A stretch of 48,432 bases of DNA, from contig JABANN010000238.1 in assembly GCA_013115125.1 (NCBI GenBank), forward strand, positions 1-48,432. Reading direction: 5' to 3'. This document shows positions 1,468 to 29,004 of the stretch, piece by piece. The notes under the pieces were generated by a model. The model saw nothing but the letters and a program-made list of their open reading frames with translations, was not told the DNA's origin and searched no databases. Position 1 is the stretch's first letter; every line of letters begins with the position of its first letter. Both the position numbers and the translations under genes were made by a program. The stretch comes from Perkinsus olseni. Its lineage: Eukaryota.

Positions 1468-4400
1468 ATGCCCCTACGGAGACGCCTGACATATGCTACT
1501 CGTTATCAGATGCATGATGTACAGGATAATAAAGTCAAAAACAACAATAGCGACTCGGCGGGGTCTACCGAGGATACCACTCCGGATGAGGCTCAGGTAA
1601 CTGGCTGGGCGAGGTCGCTGTCGTCTGTATTAATATCGTGACGAGCGGCGACTAGAAACACTGGAAACCAACATTCTTGACTCCTCTTCAACAGTGACTG
1701 CATCATCATGACGGATGCTTTACCATTAGGCGTTGAATTGGGATGCAACCTTCACTAAGGGTGCTTCGTCTTCAGCCTCGTCGAACAAGAGCAGCTAAGG
1801 ATGGCCATCAGCAGGCGAGGGAGGACGTCAGTCGAGTAGTGCAGGAGGTAGGATTGTCACAGGGGAGGAACTTGGCGGACGCAGTCTTCGCAGGTGGCTC
1901 CGGAGACTCCGCCGAAGCGACCAATGCCGAGTGACGCCGCCGGATCGATGGCGAAAAAGCGGAAGATAGGCAGCAAAGGCGACTTCAAACGATTAGTCAT
2001 CAGAGACATTGTGCGTTGAATGATGGACACTCCGGGAGTCGAACCTGGGTGTACGGCTTACAGCTCACGGCTCACAGCAGGTTCTGGAAGACTTCAAGTC
2101 TTACGGCGGGCGGAAGTACATTGGCACTTTCTCGAACAACTTTTCGGTCATTGTCGGTCCCAATGGGTCGGGAAAATCTAATATCATCGACGCCATGCTC
2201 TTCGTTTTCGGCAAAAAGGCGAAACAAATTCGACAGAACAAGTTGGCCGAGTTGATCCACAACGCCGGTGGAGAGAGGCCCGAGCGAGCCAAGGCAGGCT
2301 GAAGGAAACCTGAAATTTCCAGTATCATCTTCGTGTAGGTGAAAATTAGTTTTGCGGAGGTCAACAACGAGGATGGTCAGGAGGTACCGGGATCAGCCTT
2401 CACGATTTCGAGGGAGTGCTATGCTAACAGCTGCAGCAAGTAGGCCCGAGAGAATGCTTAGCAGTTACTGATAGTAGTGCAGCGCACCAGAGTTCTCAGC
2501 TTCATCTTTGCCCCGTTTTTGGTGCCGGTTCGCCGTTCACGTCATCGTAGAATGACTCTCTGTCTGATGTAAGTACGCGTTGGAGGAACGTAATGGCTTC
2601 CCTAAGATACACCATCGACGACCGGACTTCGTCTTGGACGGAAGTCGGTGACCGTCTTCGAGCATACGGTATCGATCTTGATCACAATCGGTGAGCAATG
2701 GCGGAGCTAGCTGTCGACTCTCACGCTGTGTTTTGTAAGATTCCTTATTCTGCAAGGAGAGGTAGAATCAATTGCTATGATGAAGCCGAAGGGGGAGGCG
2801 AGTCAGCCAGGCTTTCTAGAATTCCTCGAAGAGATTATTGGGTCGGAAGTGTAAGACAGGATGGCCTCCTGTCCTCAGCCAGATGGTGACTAGCGCTTGT
2901 CCTCTGAGAATGGTCTGGCTCGGTGTCAATCTCCCAAGCAGGTTCATCGGAGATATCGAGAAGTCAACCGAAAATATGAATAGGCTCGTGGAAGAGAGGA
3001 ATCTTCATCTAAATAGAGTCAACGCTGCACATAAGGATGTGGTGGCGCTGGAAGGGCCCAAGAGAGAGGCGATGAAATATGTCAAGTAGGTCCAGGTTGA
3101 TTTTCTTCGCTCCGCTAGAATTGTGTTATCACGTTTCTCTGTTCGCGAGTGAGTGCATGATCGTCTCGGAGCAGCCTATCGTCCGTCTTCATTGAGGTAT
3201 TCCGTTTCAGAGTTCAGTGTAAGTTGATCGGATCCAAGGCTAAGTTGGTACAGTATGATAGGGGGAAGGCGGACAAGAGGCGGAGAGAAGCTGAAGCTGA
3301 GAGAAAAGAAGCGGCCGAATCATTGAAGGAGATGATGGAGGAGATTGAACAGTAAGTAGCGCAGTTACATCCATTGGAGGGTATAGTCTTCCAGGGCGAA
3401 CCAAAAAGTCAAAGCGGCGGAGGCTGAGTGTAAAACCAAGGAGAAAGCCTGTCATAAGATCAGTGTTAAGTGTGATAAGCTGCTGAATAAGTTCAACGAG
3501 ATGGATCGGCAGTTGACTAAGTCGAAGGAGGATCTGAAGTGGGTCTCTGTGGATGCCGGAAAGGGTCTATGTCTGCACGACAGAACGTGCGAGATCAAAT
3601 TGAAGCGTACGAAGAAAGAGATAACGACCAACGAGAATAAAGCGGAGAAACTGAAAGATGATGCTAAGGAAATGGAAGAGGTCGACTTACCCAAGGTGAG
3701 GTGGCGTTGGATGGACTGTAATTGCCGATAGAACGTCTTGTGCGTGGTTTGGCTACAGAGGGTTATATAGGTTGAGAGCGACATAAAGAAATTGGAGGAA
3801 AAGAGTGAGAGTGAGCGGAAGAAACTCGAGGAGATTTACGGGAAGGAGGCTAAGTGCAGCACGGAGAAAAAGTAATAGTAGGGGTGGATGGTTCGGCTTG
3901 CGATGATGGTGATTTTAGGGAGGAGTTGGATAACCTTACCAAAGACTTGGAAGAGTTGCGCGCGGTGGAAGGTGAGTATAAAAGAGATATCAACGACATG
4001 CTGAAACAGAAGAAGCAATTAACTGACAAGGTAGGCAACTGGGCGACGGACATACCGGACATATTCTCCCCTCGGACCGCTGAATAGTCGTCCAGGACGA
4101 CTCGTCCTTTCATTTCACCTAGTATAATGGAACGAGGAAAGCGTCAGTAGAGAGCGTTGACGGATTAGGTGTCTGCAGCCCAGGGTCAGCGGGCTAGGGT
4201 AGAACAGGAAAAGCAGATCATGGTTGACAAGTTGAAGCAACGAGAGGAAGCGATGGAGGAGAGCAAACGCATTACTGAGCAGTAAGGCAGCACCTGCGCG
4301 ATGTCATCAGCTGGGTCGCTCGACTGCTCGCCTTGTGGGTACTCGGCGCGGATACAGCAGAACGAGGAGAGGATTGCGGAGATCTACGAAGCGTTGAAAC

Positions 4401-8874: not shown

Positions 8875-8897
8875 CCTCGAACTTTCGAGGCTCGAAG
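8875..8897. mobile_element. Near-perfect 7+8+7 excision-type footprint (8-mer CCTCGAAG, one extra T)
   Basis: cctcgaa-ctttcgagg-ctcgaag. Confidence 0.6.
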
Positions 8898-9009: not shown

Positions 9010-9031
9010 GTGATGAGTCATCACTGATGAC
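9010..9031. mobile_element. Perfect 7+8+7 excision-type footprint (8-mer GTGATGAC)
   Basis: gtgatga-gtcatcac-tgatgac. Confidence 0.75.
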
Positions 9032-9764: not shown

Positions 9765-9786
9765 GTCAGTGCCACTGACTCAGTGG
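9765..9786. mobile_element. Perfect 7+8+7 excision-type footprint (8-mer GTCAGTGG)
   Basis: gtcagtg-ccactgac-tcagtgg. Confidence 0.75.
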
Positions 9787-11073: not shown

Positions 11074-12342
11074 TAGTAACCGAATGTCAACCTACCAAAG
11101 GCAGCAGCCACTAATGGTAGGTATATTGTAGCATCTCGCAGTCCGAAGCACTACTGTTGGAACGCAACCTACGTAGAGAGGCATGTGTCTGCAGCTGACG
11201 ATGATGTGCAGTAACGTATAAACGAGACTGAGCAAGTCTCCGATGAACAATGAGCTATCTATCAACAGTCTAACGTCACGGGCGAGCGAACTCGCCTGCG
11301 ACGCTGTTGCGTTGCGTTGCTGTTTCGCTGTTGCGACGCGGCTCTTTGCCCGCTGGACGCCCCGGAAGTCGCGGTCGACGACTGGCTTTCGTGCAACTCA
11401 ACATTGCCTTGTGCGATAGGAGTGGGAAGCGACGCAAGCAAGCTCCACAGACTGAGGGGCGGGACCATCCCAGGGGATGGAGGGCCACGATGGCTGACCC
11501 TCCTCTAAACGGGAGAGACGGCCATCAATCCGCGCATCGCGGATTTCCGCGTGGTACCATGATTAGGACTATCATGCACCAACGTATTACGATAGGACAT
11601 AAAACGATACCTCTTCGAGAAACCCTCTTTCGATTGATGTATCGTGCGAGGTTGGTGAGAACGTCATCGCTAAACCCCGACTCGGGGTCCCCGAGAGAAG
11701 CACCATCTGGTGCTAGCACCTTCGCAATGCTCGAATTGCGTCACTTTAAGCGCCTCGCACGATGCGATGTACATTTAAACATATCGGTATTGGTTCATGG
11801 ACGTTGGAGCCTCGCAAAACTGTAGTAGCCCAGCTGTCAGTGGCTTGGTAGTAGATGCGGCCCACATCATGTGGGAGGGCAGGTGCCAGATGACCATGTC
11901 GCCCCCGGGCGACCAAGGTTGTCAGGCTGAGGCTGGACGGGCTGGTATGCTGAATGGCGGGACGCAGTATAAACCTGGTTGGTTTAACCAGCAAGCGGGA
12001 GAACAACACGAAGTGAACGTGATTTTTGTTATCACCATTTTCGTCATTGTTATCGTTGTTGTCAGCATTACTATTGCTCCTCCCGCATATCACCAATATC
12101 TACGAAAAAGACATTCACTTGCTCACCAACTGACGCAACGAAACCCATTTGATATCTTTAGTAAAATAACATCCATGAATTGCATGTGCAGCCAGGGAAG
12201 GGATAAGAGATAGGGAGGGGATGGGGGAATTCCTCTAGGCGGGTAGACAATTATACAAAAATAATGCCTGTAGCTTAGGATTAATGATAGATAGTCATTA
12301 GCATCCTTTTTGAATGCTGTCCAAGATGACTCACGACGACGT

Positions 12343-13282: not shown

Positions 13283-13581
13283 CAAGGCTGCGCTCACGAG
13301 TTCTGCTGTCCGCCAGCTCCAGTTTTGCCGCCAAACTTTTGCGGGTATTATGAATGTTACTTCTTCGCCTTGTCGGAAGGGACAGGCGCAGCAGCGCTTC
13401 GATTTTCGGGCGAGCGAGATTCTTATTACGTGCCGTGACTGGACTGGAATAGATCACGGCATAGGAGTTGCCGAGGGAGCTGCCAGATTTGTATGCAGGA
13501 ACTGGGAGCGAAATTTGAGTGTCCCCGCAGTGGAAACGTAGGCAACTCGAACCTCGCAGTTTACTCGTACGCTCCCATCCG

Positions 13582-19512: not shown

Positions 19513-20472
19513 CTACTGCATCTTAATACTACCCTTGCTGCTGGAGGCGAGGAAGTCGGACCACTGCTGCATGGGGCTCTGGGCGGGCAGCTGCTCCATC
19601 CAGAGATCAGGAGTCAGATAACCGTAAGTGGCCTGGAGAGCGTTGAAGGTAGCCTTAAGGAAGTTACCCTTAGTTCTGGTGTGACCAGTACTGCAGGTGA
19701 AGCAATCCTTAATACCGGCGAAGGAGATGAGCTTCTTGGAAGCGGGAGCACCGACGATATGGGTACCACGAGGGGCGGGGATAAGACGGACAGCAACGGA
19801 ACCGCACTTGCCAGTGACCTTCATGGGCACGGTATGGGGCTCACCGAGCTTGTTACCCCAGTAGCCACGACGGACAGGGATGAGAGAGAGCTTGGCGGCC
19901 ATGATAGCACCACGGATGGCGGTGGCGACCTCCTTAGCGGCCTTAACACCGAGACCGACGTGACCGTTCTCATCACCGATGGCGACGAAGGCCTTGAAAC
20001 GAGTACGCTGACCGGCAGTGGTCTGCTTCTGGACAGGCATGATCTTCATGACCTACAAAGAGAGAGACAGTAGGAATAAATACTGATAATGAGGCAGCTA
20101 GCATTACCTCCTCCTTAAGGACGCCAGGGGCGAAGAGCATGTCAACGATCTGGTACTCCTTGATGGGAAGAGAGTGAAGATAGACCTCCTCAATAGAGGT
20201 GATCTTGTTCTCTTTTACTAAACGGCCGAGCTTGGTGTAGGGGACCCACTCCTTCTCGCCTCCCTTTCCCTTGCGGCCCTTGCCCTTTCCTCCCTTTCCC
20301 TTGCCCTTGCCCTTTCCCTTGCCCTTGCCGCCGAAACCAGTGCCGAATCCACCGCGATCTAAAAACAACAATAAATGAGACACTCAGCCATAACGCCAAG
20401 ACCACGGCAGACGTAAAGAAGCCCTCCGACGATCGCTAGAGCGGCGTCTCTCCCTAGATTATTACCTGCCAT
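19513..20472 (-). CDS. RPS2: 40S ribosomal protein S2 (uS5)
   Basis: GK-rich N-terminus, [62 protein letters not shown]. The first coding exon is a 7-nt ATGGCAG. Confidence 0.97.
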
Positions 20473-20526
20473 GAGTTAAGGTTTATGATGGAATTATACC
20501 TCCTCCAGGGCCGGCGCGCGCCTATT

Positions 20527-20544
20527 ATCGATCACGTGATCGAT
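20527..20544. promoter_or_regulatory. Perfect 18-bp palindrome centred on CACGTG, upstream of RPS2
   Basis: ATCGATCACGTGATCGAT, 55 bp 5' of the RPS2 ATG. A regulatory role is inferred only from its position. Confidence 0.4.
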
Positions 20545-20778
20545 TTCACACAGCGGCTCTGGCCGATCAGCGCACTTAGCGCATTGCGATGACGCTGCTT
20601 GCACAGATCAGTAGTTCACCATTTCGTAGCCGCCGTAATGGATCAAACCATCCAGCCGAGTTATTAAGCTTTGATGTGCGAGCTGGTATGCCCCGAAAAG
20701 CTTCAAGTAACTAGAGCCTGGTTCAATCCCCACTCCCGGGGTTTCTCCCACGCACTAACAACTAAACAAACAGCTCAC

Positions 20779-23333
20779 TCATAACTCGTCTCGATGGTTA
20801 CTTTCCGAAACACCAATAGTGATAAAGTTGGCCTCCACCCACTGCAGGACTTTTGTCATGTTAGTCGTGTCATACATGGGGTAGCTGGTGAGGACCTTAC
20901 CCTCCGTCGCGAAGAAGCTCGGATATCCTTCGCTGTGCGCACTCAAGATACTCGGGACGTCGTTGTTGGCTGCATCCATCATGAACAGCCGTACAGCATT
21001 AGATGCAGCGAGGGCCTCAGCAAGAGGGCGCAGGACATGCCAGATAAAGGTAATGCAATGGACGCACCAAGGAGCGTAGAGCAGCAGGAGGTGTAGCTTG
21101 GTCGGGGCCGAAGGGGTCGCCATGAATTCTGATATCGACCCGCCCGTCAGGGCTTCTATCATTGGATGTATCTGATGCAGAGATGATAAACGTCAAGTTG
21201 AATTGATCATTGACCGGCAGGTCCTGTCAGGGGAGCTTCACACCTCTTTCGCCGCTTCTCCGGCTTCCTCGGCCGTTTGGCTGACTCGCAAGGGAGGGAC
21301 TTCTTCACGAACAACGGCAACGACGAAGTCTGCGACAGCGTCCGTTAAAGAGCCGTCCTCGGTGAGCATAGACTCGTGCTTGGTGTCGGTGAAGGGATCA
21401 TACGACAGGACCTGAGGAGCACTTCCAAGGGCAGCGGATGGAGTCGCGAACTGTGATGGCGGACCTGAGTTGGCCCAGATGTGGTACTAAGCCCATACCA
21501 CTGGTTGAACATAACTTGAACGCCGTGGAAGAGCTCCCATGCCTCCGAGACCTGACCAGGGGGCATCTTCGAAGACAACATGAACACTACCGGTCTTACT
21601 GGTGATAGCTGATCGGTTTCATTGTTGACTCGCCAGAGGCCAACCTCGGAGCTGGCGACTCTAGGCACTATCACTGTGAGTATGTCGGAGACCCCCTCGA
21701 TTTCGAAATCTGAAATGCCTTCGCTGTGGATGGAACCCAAGACCTGACCCACCCGTCGACAGTCGCTTCCATAACGACTCGCGCAATTCATCCCGAGCAT
21801 ACGCAATCTCCTGTATCTCAGGGACCCATTCGTCCCATATGCTTATCGAGGACAGCCCTTCAGAAGCAGGGTCGAATTTTCTCAGACTCTCTCGCGCAGA
21901 CTCAACATCAACCGCGACGAGTAAAAACACGACCAAGGGGAACCCTCCCGAGACATAACGATGGACGCGCTGTGGATCAAACACTGTGACCTGACGCTGA
22001 GCTGGTCGAGAGCAGCGCTAGGAGGAGCGCTCACTCTCTCCAAGGTATGACGGTCCAAGAACAACCTCCCAGCCATCTTGACGTCCTCGAGCTCATCATC
22101 AGGACGCACTGTCGGGAACTGTACCACGAGCCCGCTAGATGTGCAGAAGAGTGCTTCGTCTTCTGTGGTCCGGTTCGAATCCAGAGCATAGTAGACGCGA
22201 GTGTCGGCGTAATCTACAGGGAAGGGGAGAGGCTGAGCCGCGGTGTTGAGCGATACTGCACACTCACCTCCTAGGTCGTTTACCATGTTCCAAAGGGTAC
22301 CCGTCTGCTCCTTCAGAACAGCGATCACCCCAACTGGGGGGTCAAGGCGGTCCTCGGCGCAGAAGGACCCCTCAGTAGGAGGGGAGGGCTCCAATTGAAT
22401 GGGACTGTGGGAGATCGTGAAGATCAACCAGGGGTGGATGAACTCTGGCGTTCTGAAGTTGAGGTTGAACCTGCGCTGGAGGGATCGAAATGACGGCACT
22501 GGGTATCGAACTCTGGGCCTACACATGTTTGTAACCACGAACGTAGAAGTGAATGGCAGGATAGTCATCGACGTCCTCCTGCTGCAGAACTGCTTCATTC
22601 ACTTTTTGACTACCATCCGCTCTCAGAAGGACCAGAGGATTATCAGGCTCGTCTAAAGCGTCCTGAACGACGATCGTATCCCAGCTGAGCAGCGCTACCC
22701 CCCAAAAAGAGGTCCAGCGCTACGGTGCTCGCTCAGAGGACAGAGTTCACCCTCTTCGAATGGGGAATCCCGAAATCGCAGAGTACACGGTCTTTGAGAA
22801 TCCTATCCGTCCCTGTTGGGAGTTACTGTTGTTGGGTTTTACAGTGTACACCAAAGCCACGACCCGATGTCTTCAAAAGCCGTGGAAAGGGTAATAAGTC
22901 TCACCAGATCGTCAGAGTCTGTTCCTTCATACATAGGAGTAAGATCCGGCGGCAACATCCTCGCTGCATCTCGGACCTGCACTGAAGATTCCACCGTCCC
23001 AATTGAAACCCCGGAATCCAAAGCATCGATCGGGCTTCAGTGTGCAATTGAGTGCGTAAATCTATTCGATCCGGGCCTCAGAATATCTCAGTCTGCGATA
23101 GAGGATTCCCATGTGAACTGCGGCTTTGAAGACAATACGTCAAACGAGTCTCTGGCACTCACCGCTCGTGCAGCCATGGTGCAGATATTACCGCACCATT
23201 TCGAGCCGAAAAGTGCAAGGACGAAGTCATTGCTACGGAGCACGGCATCGAATTCACCCAAGCCCTTCGCTTTCAGGAATCCCGTCGCGTTGGCTTCCAG
23301 TGAGAAAAGGAGGAGGAGAGGGGACAAATACAT
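20779..23333 (-). CDS. ER-resident thioredoxin/PDI-like protein, multi-exon
   Basis: Signal peptide MYLSPLLLLFSLEANA. First Trx-like domain VLALFGSKWCGNIC...IYALNC. Last Trx domain LLYAPWCVHC...MDAANND...EGYPSF. C-terminal RDEL retention signal. Confidence 0.85.
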
Positions 23334-23431
23334 ACGGTACAAGACAAAAACTAAATTTAGCACTCCACCGGTGAATGCCAAGAAACAATCAGTCGTGGGT
23401 CTACATACAGTAACGTGACTGTGATAGGCGG

Positions 23432-23462
23432 GTCGCTGCCAGCAACGCCAGCGACTCGCTGG
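23432..23462. mobile_element. Compound 7+8+7-like footprint (8-mer GTCGCTGG) with duplicated middle segment
   Basis: gtcgctg-ccagcaac-g-ccagcgac-tcgctgg. Confidence 0.45.
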
Positions 23463-24592
23463 CATGCTGACCGGAGTTATCCATACCGTACTCATATCGT
23501 CACTGATCATACCGCCTGATTTCACTGTATTCAGCACGTTGACGGCGCTCAGTGTGATGAGCCCGAAGGGTGGACACTCGAGAATTTGCGATCTCAATTC
23601 ACCATGCAGAAGCACTACGTACTGTGCTCTGTACATAGGATGCTGCGCTAACGCTTCGGTTGGGTTCGAATGAGGGTGAGATGCAAGAGTATTGTAGATA
23701 AGGGAGAGTATACGACAGAGGAGTGGATATGCAAGGCAGTACAACACAAGCATTTCGGATAAAGTTTTGACGAGTCATAATAATACTCGGCAAACCTTCG
23801 CATACAGTGCATCTCACTAACTTTCCGGTATTCTAAGAATCCTACTTAGGATCCCCGCTCTGATGAAGCTGATGAGCAGGCCGACTGCGCGGCATCCATG
23901 TGGGATATCCTGCACTTGGCGAATAATTTCGTGCGCGCTCCCCGGATACTCCCTACTTGTGAACGCGCGAACGTGTAAAGCCGGATGCTACTATGCTGTA
24001 GATGCAAGACACGCGGTGCATCAATTTGACGACAACAGGCCGAGCCTGAAGGAGAACCCGTGCACCACTATGTCATACGAGGACGGTATCAACAGACCCA
24101 ACGAAATCCCTGATAAGCATCATGTGAGCTCCCCATATCCGGCTCTTGGTGTGAAGCGTTCTGGAAGCTTCTCAGGAAAAGGTCTTAATTCACTACGACT
24201 CATAGTAAATGTGTTGTAGTGTTCAAAACATTTACAACGCAGCCAACAATAATATCTTGTGTCGAACCTCCCCACGACCACGACTAATGAGCAACGATGG
24301 CCACAGAACAGTCTTGTCCCAAATTGGGAACTCCCAATCAAAATGCATGATTGTCGAACAAGACGCTGGAGACGAGCGCCGTTTCCACTGAGCTACGTCG
24401 AGTTCATGCACCATCACCCTCTCTTCCTGCCCAGGGAGAAGAAAGTTCATAGTGCCACATCGCGGAGGAGTCCCACCGTTCTGCCGCCATTTTTGGGCGC
24501 GCGCTTTTTTCAGCGCAACTTCGTTGGCCGCGTGCGCGTCAACGATCGCTCGACCGGTTTCCCGCTACTCGCGTCTGGCAGCCAATACTTTC

Positions 24593-27148
24593 ATGATACT
24601 ACTATTTCGAACTGTCTTTATTTCGACGGCGCTCGTCAAAGCACTTGAAGCCGCTGAACTTGGAGCGCCTGATTCTGATGCCGAACTTGTCAAGGACGAT
24701 TTACCAGAACGAAAGGTGGACGAGCCCGGGGATATTCTCGAGACCTCGAACGAAAAACCCAAATCAACGAAGACCGAGAAGATGGAGGTGGGCTTTCATA
24801 AGTTCAAGGCATATCTTTAGGTCAACTTGGTGATCGAACCACGTGCATGCGTGTTAGTGGATTTCTGTTGCAGGACCTCTCCGACGACCTTCCCGAGATG
24901 GAAGCCAAGGGAGCTGACTTCAGTGCCATGACCGGGCCCGCTCCAAAGCCAGTACAACCTAAGAAACGCGAGCCTAGGTTCAAGATACGGGCATACAAGA
25001 TCGACACGAAGAAGTAGCACGGGGTGATGCTCCCCTATGCTGGTCGTGAAGGAACCTCTCAGAGTCACCGCCTCCTTCCGAAAGCCGACCTGTTCGGGCG
25101 CTGTCCCTGTCAAGGCGGAAGCTTCAAAGGTCCTCAGCGATCCCGGCCCAGCGTAAGCTCCACTCGGCTGCGACCAATTGGGGCAAGCTTGCGGCTGTTA
25201 GATTCGAGGAGCTCAATGAAGAAGCCAATGGAAAAACTGATCAGTCTCCTGAGGCAGCGAAGGCAGAGAAGGAACTGGATGTGAGGGGGAACTGGAACTG
25301 TAGTTGCCAAACCTGGGGATCGATCTCGGGACCATTCGCATGAGAGTATCGAAACCTAGATTCGCGTGTATCAATGTGGGACTGTATATATCGTATACCG
25401 TAGTGTATACGATTGATGGAGAGAGTACTATCCAGTCCGCGGTTGATACCGCTTGGGAGTGTTGGCCTATTTACCTCTTCTTCTTCGTCTTGAGTCGAAG
25501 GCCGTCTCCAGCAATGTTCAAGGCCCTTCTGTAGGATGTGTGTGTGCGGCTTAGGAAAACCCAGCTATGAAGGAGGCTAAGAAGATAGCCGAGAATCCTG
25601 TGGAGGAGGACGCCGTAGTGAATCAAATTGAAGCTTCAGGAGTGGGTTGTTTTCCCTGGCTCACGGATCGTGGATCCTCGCTCGGTCGCAGGTTTCTACG
25701 CCCGAGCCTGCTGAGCCGGTGCCGACCGAAGCTCCTGAGGAAGAGGCCGCCGACAAGAAGCCCCCGGAGGTAGTCTGGTCCCCGGTGTTCACCCAAGTCG
25801 ATGGAATACGAGTATAGACCTTGCGGTCTTGGAGCGCTGAGTTCTGCGCACCGCTCAGCTTGTTTAACCGGGGTTTAGTGAACAATTTGATACTGGCCCT
25901 CCATCAACATCATTAGCAGATATTGTCGTTGAGAGCTAGCGGGCTTACTCGCCATGGTGAGAATGCTTCCTCTTCTCCACGACGCCTCGTTTATCCAAAC
26001 CTGTCACGGTGTTGCATCTCCTGTCGTTACTCAGCCCGTCAAGATAGACGTCAACCGTGAAAGTGGTGGAGAGATATATAGCGCGGTAAGTGCCTGGTCT
26101 TGGGATCGAACCTGAGACCTCTTAAAAGTTATCTGGCAGGCCCTTGATCATGCCGTGAAGGCCAAGATGGGTATCAAGCCTCGAGATAAGTTCGATATGG
26201 AGGCGCACAGGCAGAAGCTGGTGAAACGCGTAGAGGATATCAGAGAAGGTCACCAGAAAGAGTGAGTATCGATCTAGGGCTGCATCGCTCTACTTGATCT
26301 GCAGGCATGCTAAGCAAGTCGAAGAAGCTGCCAAATCTGAAGACAATTCGGCCGACTCTCAGTCTTTCATAGAGCAAGCGGACTGCCCTGGAGGAAACTG
26401 CCCGGAGGAAGCTGCGGCACCGACTGCAGGTGGCGACGAGCAGGCAATCGGTGAAGAAAACAAGGAGCCGGTAGGAGGGCTGGGCTCTGGGGCTCGAGGG
26501 CAAGTTTCACCGCATGAAGTTTAGTGCTGTCGTGATTATACATCTCCTCAGCCCTGTGAAGAAGGCTACGACTCGTCGTCTCGAAAGAAGTACAAACCCT
26601 GCCCATATAAGCCTGTCTGGGATGATCCTACAGCCGATAAAATGAAGATTGAACGCGCATTAAAAGGGTAAGCGTCGATCTGAGTGGTCGTGACGTATCG
26701 GCATGCAGACGCACGGCTTCGGCTGTGAGACATAGAGTGTACCACGATTCTGTGGGTAGCCCTCTAGTAGAGAGCACGACCGAGTCTCTTCCTCTCCGGA
26801 AGGCCATTGCTCACCTTATGCTCCGATATCTGAGCCTTCGGCATGGATTTCCCGTGAACTCGGTTGTCAAACAGATCTCTCCAGCCTTGGTTTCCTCTAC
26901 CGCTTGGGAGATCACTAGTGCCGGAATGGTCTTGTTCGTGAAGGTCCACCGCTGGGGCAGTCCCTAAGGCGGATGGGTCGACCGCACCCACAGAGGATAC
27001 AACAGCGGGAGAATCCAAGGCTTTGATGGAGGGCGGCTCGGCGCCACTCAAGACGTACATCAGTTGGGTTTGGCAACATCGAGGCACTTTTTGAAAGCTC
27101 AGGTCATTCCTCCATCGATCAGGCAGATCCCTACAAGTATGGTCATGA
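24593..27148 (+). CDS. Secreted acidic, low-complexity hypothetical protein A, multi-exon
   Basis: Signal peptide MILLFRTVFISTALVKA and E/P/A/K-rich exons bounded by GT-AG. Shares a motif with the downstream gene. The 3' end is approximate. Confidence 0.7.
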
Positions 27149-27292: not shown

Positions 27293-29004
27293 ATGATTCG
27301 CAGTGCCATCGCTTTCGTCGGGACCTTCGCCGTCCTCTCCCAGGGTATGAGGACCAAATCCACGGCTCCAGCTGCGGCGGTAAGAGTCGACACCACGGCT
27401 GCTTCTGCCAGAGCTGACTTCTCAGGAATCTACGGATACTGAAGAGCTTGAGAGGCCGGTGGAGCTGAGCTCTGAAGCCCCGCTCAGTACGGACTACGAA
27501 CCCAATTATCAAGCTATCGATATAAGTGCCACGGTGGGTGGAGATGCCTCGTCGTGACTGCCGGAAAGAAGTTCGTCCTCTCAGTGGAATAAGGACGAGC
27601 CGGTCTTAGAACCCCAGGGCGGCGATTTTGAATCCTTGACGAACTCGGTGAATCGCCCCCGTCAGCTCAAGCCGACTGAACCGAAGTTCCACGCCTACAA
27701 GCCGGAATGGAATGACAAACAGTATAACGCGGATTGGTTCTGCCAATAGGTTATTAAGTCTTTACAGGTTCCCTGTGAAAATGGACAAGTCTAAGTACGT
27801 TACGGGAAAGGTGCCCGTACAGCAGACAACAGAGGGCCTCTTCGATTCGCCTGAGTAAAAAGGAAACGCACGCCCTCGGGAACTAGAGATGACTAATGTG
27901 CTGTTGTAGGATTGAGGATCTTCGTGAACAGCTCCAAACCTCTGATGACACGCTCATCAAGAAGGCCAAGGATGAACTCGGCTGCGATGTAATGATGGCA
28001 GCACGGTCGACTCATAATTCGTATCTTGTGCAGCACGGCCAATCCATCCAAGCTATTAAGGATGTCAGCGAGAACTCCGTCAACCAGGACAACGTCATCC
28101 AGGCCATCGACGCTTCTGCTGTAAGTCTCTTCCCTGTCCTTTGGTAGCGTATAACTGGTGCCTCAGAGCTTCGAGCCTGAAGCTCCCCCTCCCGTTCAAG
28201 CTGAAAGTGGTGTCGTCATTCAACAGAAGGCGCCTCGGGCTACTGTAAGGCCGCATCCTCGCCAGACCTGCTGACAGGGGCGCAACTAGGGTGAAACATT
28301 TGAAACAGAGTTTCGGGGCCCCGCCCCGTCCAAGGCCGAGAGGGGGCCCTTTGAGATAGGGAGCGTTGTATGCTCCCTATAGTAATAGGGCCCCCTACGG
28401 TGTTCGATTTTCTGGGCCCTCCTGGGCAAAATCGATCTGGTTGCGGCCCTGCCTGCTGATATCTTCGACAGCAGCGTTCGGATCGTTGATCTTCCTTCCC
28501 CTCAGAAAGTTCAGTTGGACATCTCCCATCGTTCCTCGGGCTCTGAGCTGTGGGATGAGGTGAGGGGACCTTAAGCCTTGGGAGTCGGTAGTAACTTGGG
28601 TTCTTCATAGGTTGGACGCTTCGCCACCAAGCTCCCCGAGGAGCCCGCCCCGGTCGGCGACAAGGTGGGTGATGTCGCTAAGGCTGCTCACATCACCGGC
28701 GCTGCTGAAAAGAAGGAATCCTTCCTGGCTCTCGGGGTAAGTCCAGAATGAAGCCTAAATTGGATCCGATTGTCTTCATGTTAGACCGAGGCTCAGAAGC
28801 TGAAGTCGATCAAGGCTTTCAGCAGCGGCTCACCTCCGGCTAAGGTAGTAACCCAAGCCCTTCCGTTGTGATAGCATTGACGGTTGCCTGCCTTAGTCTC
28901 GTAGGAAGAACTGCGATCCTCGTGCATACACGAAGGAGAAGCCCTATCAGCCTTGCTACGTTCCCGATTGGGTCGACCCTAAGATGCCTGAGACCAGACA
29001 TTAG
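27293..29004 (+). CDS. Secreted hypothetical protein B, paralogue of A, multi-exon
   Basis: Signal peptide MIRSAIAFVGTFAVLSQG. Spliced exons ESTDTEELERP.., WNKDEPVLEPQGGDFESLT..EPKFHAYKPEWNDK, IEDLREQLQ.. and final ..KPYQPCYVPDWVDPKMPETRH*. Confidence 0.75.
28275..28451. mobile_element. 177-bp non-autonomous hAT-type MITE in an intron
   Basis: 15-bp TIRs: CAGGGGCGCAACTAG (28275-28289) and CTGGTTGCGGCCCTG (28437-28451), 13/15 complementary. Perfect 8-bp TSD CCTGCTGA at 28267-28274 and 28452-28459. Internal hairpins. Confidence 0.9.

Follow-up and report, generated by a model that had tools for sequence, protein, structure and literature searches.

The stretch examined here is contig JABANN010000238.1 of Perkinsus olseni, a protist that parasitises molluscs (NCBI GenBank assembly GCA_013115125.1), positions 1 to 48,432 of the forward strand, and the whole of it is referred to as the window. 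A plus-strand gene in this window carries within one of its introns a 177-bp non-coding element with the build of a non-autonomous hAT-like transposon, and short palindromic scars, 22 nt long in their basic form, are scattered over the same 48.4 kb. The host gene was modelled on frame continuity alone: five GT..AG introns (45, 46, 261, 51, and 48 nt) would connect six exons into one predicted frame of 160 codons. An intronic location at about 28244-28505 had already been claimed for the element in a first-pass annotation of this DNA, and it holds, with the intron now placed at 28245-28505. The intron and the parts of the element are:

28245..28505, plus strand: predicted host intron, GTAAGG..CCTCAG, 261 nt, with flanking exons at 28167-28244 and 28506-28559 and a single open frame across six exons
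28267..28274, no strand assigned: target-site duplication CCTGCTGA (8 bp), left copy, 100% identical to the right one
28275..28451, no strand assigned: the non-coding element itself, 177 bp, a candidate for a non-autonomous hAT-like transposon, judged by repeats, ends, fold, and shuffles; no Rfam family at gathering score, no tRNA
28275..28289, plus strand: left terminal inverted repeat, 15 nt, with a CAGGG start
28316..28419, no strand assigned: four GGGCCC hexamers, starting at 28316, 28344, 28388, and 28414, from a hexamer count
28341..28396, no strand assigned: nested internal hairpin, with 10-nt arms at 28341-28350 and 28387-28396 (100%) enclosing 9-nt arms at 28356-28364 and 28372-28380
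28404..28435, no strand assigned: second internal hairpin, with 8-nt arms at 28404-28411, TCGATTTT, and 28428-28435, AAAATCGA (100%)
28437..28451, minus strand: right terminal inverted repeat, 15 nt, matching the left one at 13/15 positions
28452..28459, no strand assigned: target-site duplication CCTGCTGA (8 bp), right copy, 100% identical to the left one

The element starts with CAGGGGCGCAACTAG, and its far end, read on the opposite strand, starts with CAGGGCCGCAACCAG; the two agree at 13 of 15 positions, both begin with CAGGG, and their complementarity runs out after about 15-20 nt. Extending the flanking duplication to 9 bp failed on both sides. A scan for exact 8-bp repeats that abut inverted ends matching at 13/15 or better returned one instance in the window and none in 300 shuffles, while the same scan with ends of 10/12 returned one in the window and one across 20 shuffles. 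Folded as single-stranded DNA, the element reached -54.8 kcal/mol compared to -27.5 +/- 3.2 kcal/mol for 200 shuffles (z = -8.54), none of which was as stable. The hexamer GGGCCC occurs 12 times in the whole window, and the four occurrences inside the 177 bp are possible binding sites for a protein, perhaps the transposase. One of the six reading frames of the element is free of stops (59 aa), and a tRNA search of the element found none. The size, the CAGGG-starting ends with their 13/15 match, the perfect duplication, and the nested hairpins had all been described in the first-pass annotation, and each was recovered where it had been placed, the hairpins as three arm pairs.

Without the element and one copy of the repeat, the host intron would measure 76 nt, and as it stands it is ~185 nt longer than its neighbours of 45-51 nt. 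The 76-nt intron that is left when the element is taken away suggests that an intron was already there when the element inserted, and that the element is not an intron in its own right. This bears on a likeness to introners, which the available text of PMC7789003 describes from Amoebophrya (a relative of dinoflagellates), Micromonas, and Aureococcus: they too are small and intron-associated, with inverted ends and with direct repeats, which in their case are 3-5 nt long and overlap the exon boundaries. Introner identity was rejected, because introners are the intron itself, and here the intron (28245-28505) extends beyond the element (28275-28451) on both sides, with 30 nt between the GT and the element and 54 nt between the element and the AG.

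The scars follow a single grammar. For an 8-mer ABCDEFGH, a scar consists of ABCDEFG, the reverse complement of all eight letters, and BCDEFGH, adding up to 22 nt. The window holds 10 perfect instances, 13 at 13/14 pairings or better, and 14 at 12/14 or better, compared to means of 0, 0.01, and 0.15 over 100 shuffles. When fifteen grammars were compared (unit length 6-10 nt, offset 0-2), the 8-nt unit with a 1-nt offset was the only populated one (10 sites); the other fourteen gave none, save two short ones with one site each, which is near chance. The 8-bp length of the element's duplication had been matched to the 8-mer unit of the scars beforehand, and 8 nt indeed turned out to be the sole populated unit. 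Three variants of the same design have between one and three additional bases where their parts meet, as end-joining might give, and bring the total to 17 scars:

4087..4108: 22 nt, perfect with 14/14 pairs, located in an intron (GT..AG) of the SMC gene
8875..8897: variant, 23 nt, with a single additional base at the first junction
9010..9031: 22 nt, perfect
9765..9786: 22 nt, perfect
11528..11552: variant, 25 nt, with additional bases at both junctions
11674..11695: 22 nt, perfect
11854..11875: 22 nt, 13/14 pairs
13322..13343: 22 nt, 12/14 pairs
24316..24338: variant, 23 nt, with a single additional base at the second junction
37595..37616: 22 nt, perfect
41263..41284: 22 nt, 13/14 pairs
43089..43110: 22 nt, 13/14 pairs
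44960..44981: 22 nt, perfect, in the coding sequence of a minus-strand NFX1-type helicase gene, where disregarding the extra 14 nt joins the open frames
46098..46119: 22 nt, perfect, splits the helicase coding sequence
46301..46322: 22 nt, perfect, splits the helicase coding sequence
47271..47292: 22 nt, perfect, splits the helicase coding sequence; an exon of the public gene model FOZ61_010892 starts inside it
48113..48134: 22 nt, perfect, splits the helicase coding sequence

Read on the plus strand, 10 of the 17 scar 8-mers begin with G (position 1) and 12 of the 17 end with it (position 8), and C stands at these two positions in 2/17 and 1/17. Among informative sites this amounts to a strand asymmetry of about 10 to 0, whichever strand the gene lies on. 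T occupies position 2 in 9/17, compared to a background of 23%, and A occupies position 7 in 6/17. As to their distribution, just one scar (24316-24338) shares the gene-dense middle of the window (13400-37500) with the element; the remaining 16 are found either at 4-13.4 kb or at 37.6-48.2 kb.

At the level of sequence alignment, comparison with related genes shows the scars to be insertions. The gene that carries five of them lies at 43900-48432 on the minus strand and encodes a helicase of the NFX1/ZNFX1 type (AAA_11 and AAA_12, then cysteine-rich repeats). Scars 46301-46322 and 46098-46119 break its reading frame: five of six related Perkinsus proteins continue straight through the site at 46301, and three of six continue through the one at 46098, where one further protein ends, one differs in sequence, and one model deviates. 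When the P. chesapeaki protein P0009 was aligned by tblastn, its matches broke with a change of frame at scars 48113, 47271, 46301, and 46098, and they fused once the extra 14 nt per scar were omitted, for example into one gapless match of 348 residues. Relative to its P. chesapeaki counterpart, the gene has suffered the five 22-nt scars and four 1-nt deletions, some of them in short homopolymers, and is otherwise open over stretches of at least 500 nt; it is either a young decaying pseudogene or an assembly with indel errors. Splicing of the exonic scars as tiny introns was considered and rejected: no GT..AG boundaries that would yield a 14-nt removal were found by eye, the four 1-nt deletions come on top of the scars, and the scar of the essential SMC gene is an intronic one, so that no such splicing needs to be invoked.

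The scars are part of the public record, since an exon of the NCBI model FOZ61_010892 (P. olseni) begins within one. This protein is encoded exon by exon in the window (tblastn), with 181/182 identities over the last 182 residues and full identity over long stretches elsewhere. Its model places a splice acceptor AG inside scar 47271-47292 and has another scar inside a predicted intron (48044-48144). A weak second match to its C-terminal part, with 28% identity over 150 residues, was seen at 42050-42427 on the minus strand, and points to a partial, degraded copy of the helicase locus.

Taken together, the element is probably a non-autonomous cut-and-paste transposon of the hAT kind that entered a pre-existing short intron and duplicated its 8-bp target CCTGCTGA, with elements of this kind leaving 22-nt scars on exit. 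The hAT assignment is made because of the 8-bp duplication and the short ends that start with CAGGG. The ends of hAT elements follow the consensus YARNG, and those of Ac begin with CAGGG; the ends of the element agree with YARNG. As far as sequence can tell, the hAT-type reading is well supported by the anatomy, and I infer hAT membership, mobility, and copy number. The element shares with maize Ds and with hAT-type MITEs, the miniature transposable elements with inverted repeats, the 8-bp duplication, the short CAG-starting ends, the absence of coding capacity, and the strong self-folding, and it differs from them in its target sequence, as detailed below, and in being a single copy with no partner transposase seen in the window. 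The MITE label given to it at first pass stands as regards its small size, non-coding nature, inverted ends, and target-site duplication, all of which are found here, and falls short as regards copies, of which the 48.4-kb window holds just the one. Its typing as hAT is carried by the length of the duplication and by the CAGGG ends, and not by its target or by any transposase in the window.

Several results weigh against this reading. The target preference of hAT elements is nTnnnnAn, and in the duplication of the element positions 2 and 7 are occupied by C and G instead of T and A; the excess of T at position 2 of the scar 8-mers leans towards the hAT preference. BLASTN-short and relaxed BLASTN found no second copy of the element in the window, only chance matches of 8-14 nt, and a search for the 15-nt ends with up to 3 mismatches returned five sites compared to 3.3 expected, two of the five being the element's own ends. 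Pfam identified no transposase family among the 258 stop-to-stop frames of at least 70 aa in the window, nor did a check of the 20 longest frames reveal one, and the check for a hAT transposase open reading frame, to which the first-pass annotation had pointed, thereby came back empty for these frames. The 59-aa stop-free translation had no relatives among longer proteins or 1.84 billion representatives, a weak point as it concerns one frame at the protein level. No remnants of the element's ends were found in the 17 scars, none of which is assignable to this particular element, and the asymmetry of the scar 8-mers is not what a symmetric transposase predicts. All scars also come from one assembly.

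Further searches were made for relatives and for other elements. Neither both ends with a gap nor a 24-base stretch had a match in a set made up of bacterial and archaeal contigs only, which is uninformative for Perkinsus, and a phage collection held no match to the element. A relaxed scan (7/8 duplication, 9/12 ends, YARNG start) returned two weak pairs, 20391-26029 and 40799-48409, compared to 0.5 expected; neither contains a transposase domain, and both were set aside as probably due to chance.

How elements of this kind might write such scars can be outlined from what has been described for relatives. The available text of PMC5499845 has hAT transposases release their element via a hairpin on each flank. 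Footprints of Ac/Ds, as given in the available text of PMC5873905, comprise deletions as well as inserted palindromes, whose centre is the complement of the base adjoining the element; the arms of the palindromes reach up to 20 nt in yeast, joins use microhomology, and 28 types were counted among 128 events in Candida. The window scars are built alike: each is composed of two palindromes with 7-nt arms, centred on the complement of H and the complement of A, and the middle 8-mer is common to both. Ac/Ds footprints are varied in that source, whereas the scars here are strikingly uniform, with both arms at their full 7 nt and overlapping in one 8-mer. Encoding nothing itself, the element would depend for its movement on a transposase made elsewhere, one able to recognise its 15-bp ends and perhaps also the four GGGCCC motifs. 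On departure, the transposase would seal each flank as a hairpin with its tip offset by one base, and the cell would open both hairpins far from the tip. The resulting single-stranded tails would each terminate in a copy of the 8-mer, one complementary to the other, and would anneal through these copies; trimming of the flaps and filling of the gaps would then always give the same 22-mer. If the hairpins were opened near the tip instead, the two direct copies would anneal and the site would be restored without a trace. I infer the annealing step, and it is speculation that the uniformity of the scars reflects a repair system leaning on microhomology.

The first-pass annotation had also put the element forward as a candidate source of the scars. 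A link is plausible, because the length of the element's duplication equals the 8-nt unit of the scars, and the excision product predicted for the element has exactly the grammar of the 10 perfect scars in the window. No second intact structure of the window, moreover, has both an 8-bp duplication and matching ends. With no scar tied to it, its family as the source of the scars is plausible but unproven.

A bystander role for the element is worth weighing: it would be a real non-autonomous transposon, and the scars would stem from one or more other families that duplicate 8 bp and form offset hairpins. This is possible, if clearly less probable than the common origin favoured here. It would account for the lack of end remnants in any scar and for the ratio of 17 scars to one intact element, and the duplication of the element, with C at position 1 and A at position 8, is unlike the scars' habit of G at both ends on the same strand. 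On the opposite strand, however, the duplication does end in G, its length is that of the only populated scar unit, and no other structure in the window combines an 8-bp duplication with matching ends, the relaxed scan having added just the two weak pairs. That the scars are sequencing or assembly artefacts is very unlikely. All evidence is from a single assembly, the 1-nt deletions in the helicase gene are possible assembly errors, and a strand asymmetry is odd for a symmetric biological process; yet the grammar is exactly that of the published hAT footprint, as far as the available text describes it, with an 8-nt unit, a 1-nt offset, and nothing else populated. Variants with extra junction bases also argue against an artefact, as does the essential SMC gene, where the scar at 4087 lies in an intron. 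I know of no sequencing-platform error that writes 14-nt templated palindromes.

As for the element itself, a place in another superfamily with duplications of about 8 bp (Mutator-like, Merlin, P, or an undescribed one) is improbable. It would fit with the absence of a hAT transposase among the window frames, but scar grammars with 9- or 10-nt units have no sites in the window and the ends fit YARNG. Mutator-like elements, according to the available text of PMC5499845, share the duplication range of 8-10 bp (typically 9) and the flank hairpins on excision, while their ends typically exceed 100 bp, with 145-bp inverted ends in Muta1, for which >90% of excisions in yeast were precise; the ends of the element measure 15 bp, with complementarity not going beyond 15-20 nt. 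Merlin elements duplicate 8-9 bp, and Merlin-related open frames occur in Perkinsus marinus, yet their ends of 24-462 bp carry a conserved terminal 5'-GG (available text of PMC8101967), where the 15-bp ends of the element start with CA. More doubtful still, and the least probable of the alternatives, is that the element is no transposon but some structured part of the intron, for instance a hairpin RNA gene, with its end complementarity and repeat due to chance or local duplication. The very stable fold, the single copy in the window, and a sub-threshold Rfam hit to mir-491 (25.5 bits compared to a gathering score of 62) could be read in this way, but no Rfam family reached its gathering score for the element, none of the 300 shuffles paired an exact 8-bp repeat with 13/15 ends, the repeat abuts the ends exactly, and the intron exceeds its neighbours by the ~185 nt that an insertion predicts.

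On the favoured reading of a hAT-kind transposon, the element is an ordinary kind of thing in a lineage from which none has been described, and its setting is of more interest: a dense, uniform, and unusually regular field of footprints, several of them in coding sequence. No hAT elements, MITEs, or scars of this sort were found for Perkinsus in the literature searched (Repbase was not covered by it), and if the family is confirmed, this would be the first hAT-type MITE described from the genus. A wider and more tentative proposal is that the P. olseni genome holds a dense record of local hAT hops, in which repair writes the same 22-nt mark at each exit by annealing of the flank hairpins through the inverted 8-mer, with tens of thousands of marks genome-wide that kill gene copies. 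If this is true, the ~1 mark per 3 kb seen here would extrapolate to that number and be frequent enough to frameshift genes, as with the five marks in one helicase. The scars would then look like the almost deterministic outcome of microhomology-driven joining, in contrast to the mixed footprints of plants and yeasts, and would read out the repair of hairpin-capped breaks in an early-branching relative of dinoflagellates and apicomplexans. Their common orientation would imply either that insertion or repair is coupled to the direction of replication or that one element left the trail; one element hopping locally in fixed orientation and a replication-linked bias are both possibilities for the asymmetry. 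In practical terms, the scars break reading frames and mislead public gene prediction, and whether a given site has or lacks the element or a scar would make a handy marker for isolates.

The remainder of the window is made up of ordinary genes. Pfam matches were obtained for 19 of the 258 frames, none of them a transposase, and identified SMC, FKBP, BipA/TypA GTPase, ribosomal protein uS5, thioredoxin, and metallophosphatase genes, as well as a GFO/IDH/MocA oxidoreductase, GWT1, and the AAA_11/AAA_12 helicase.

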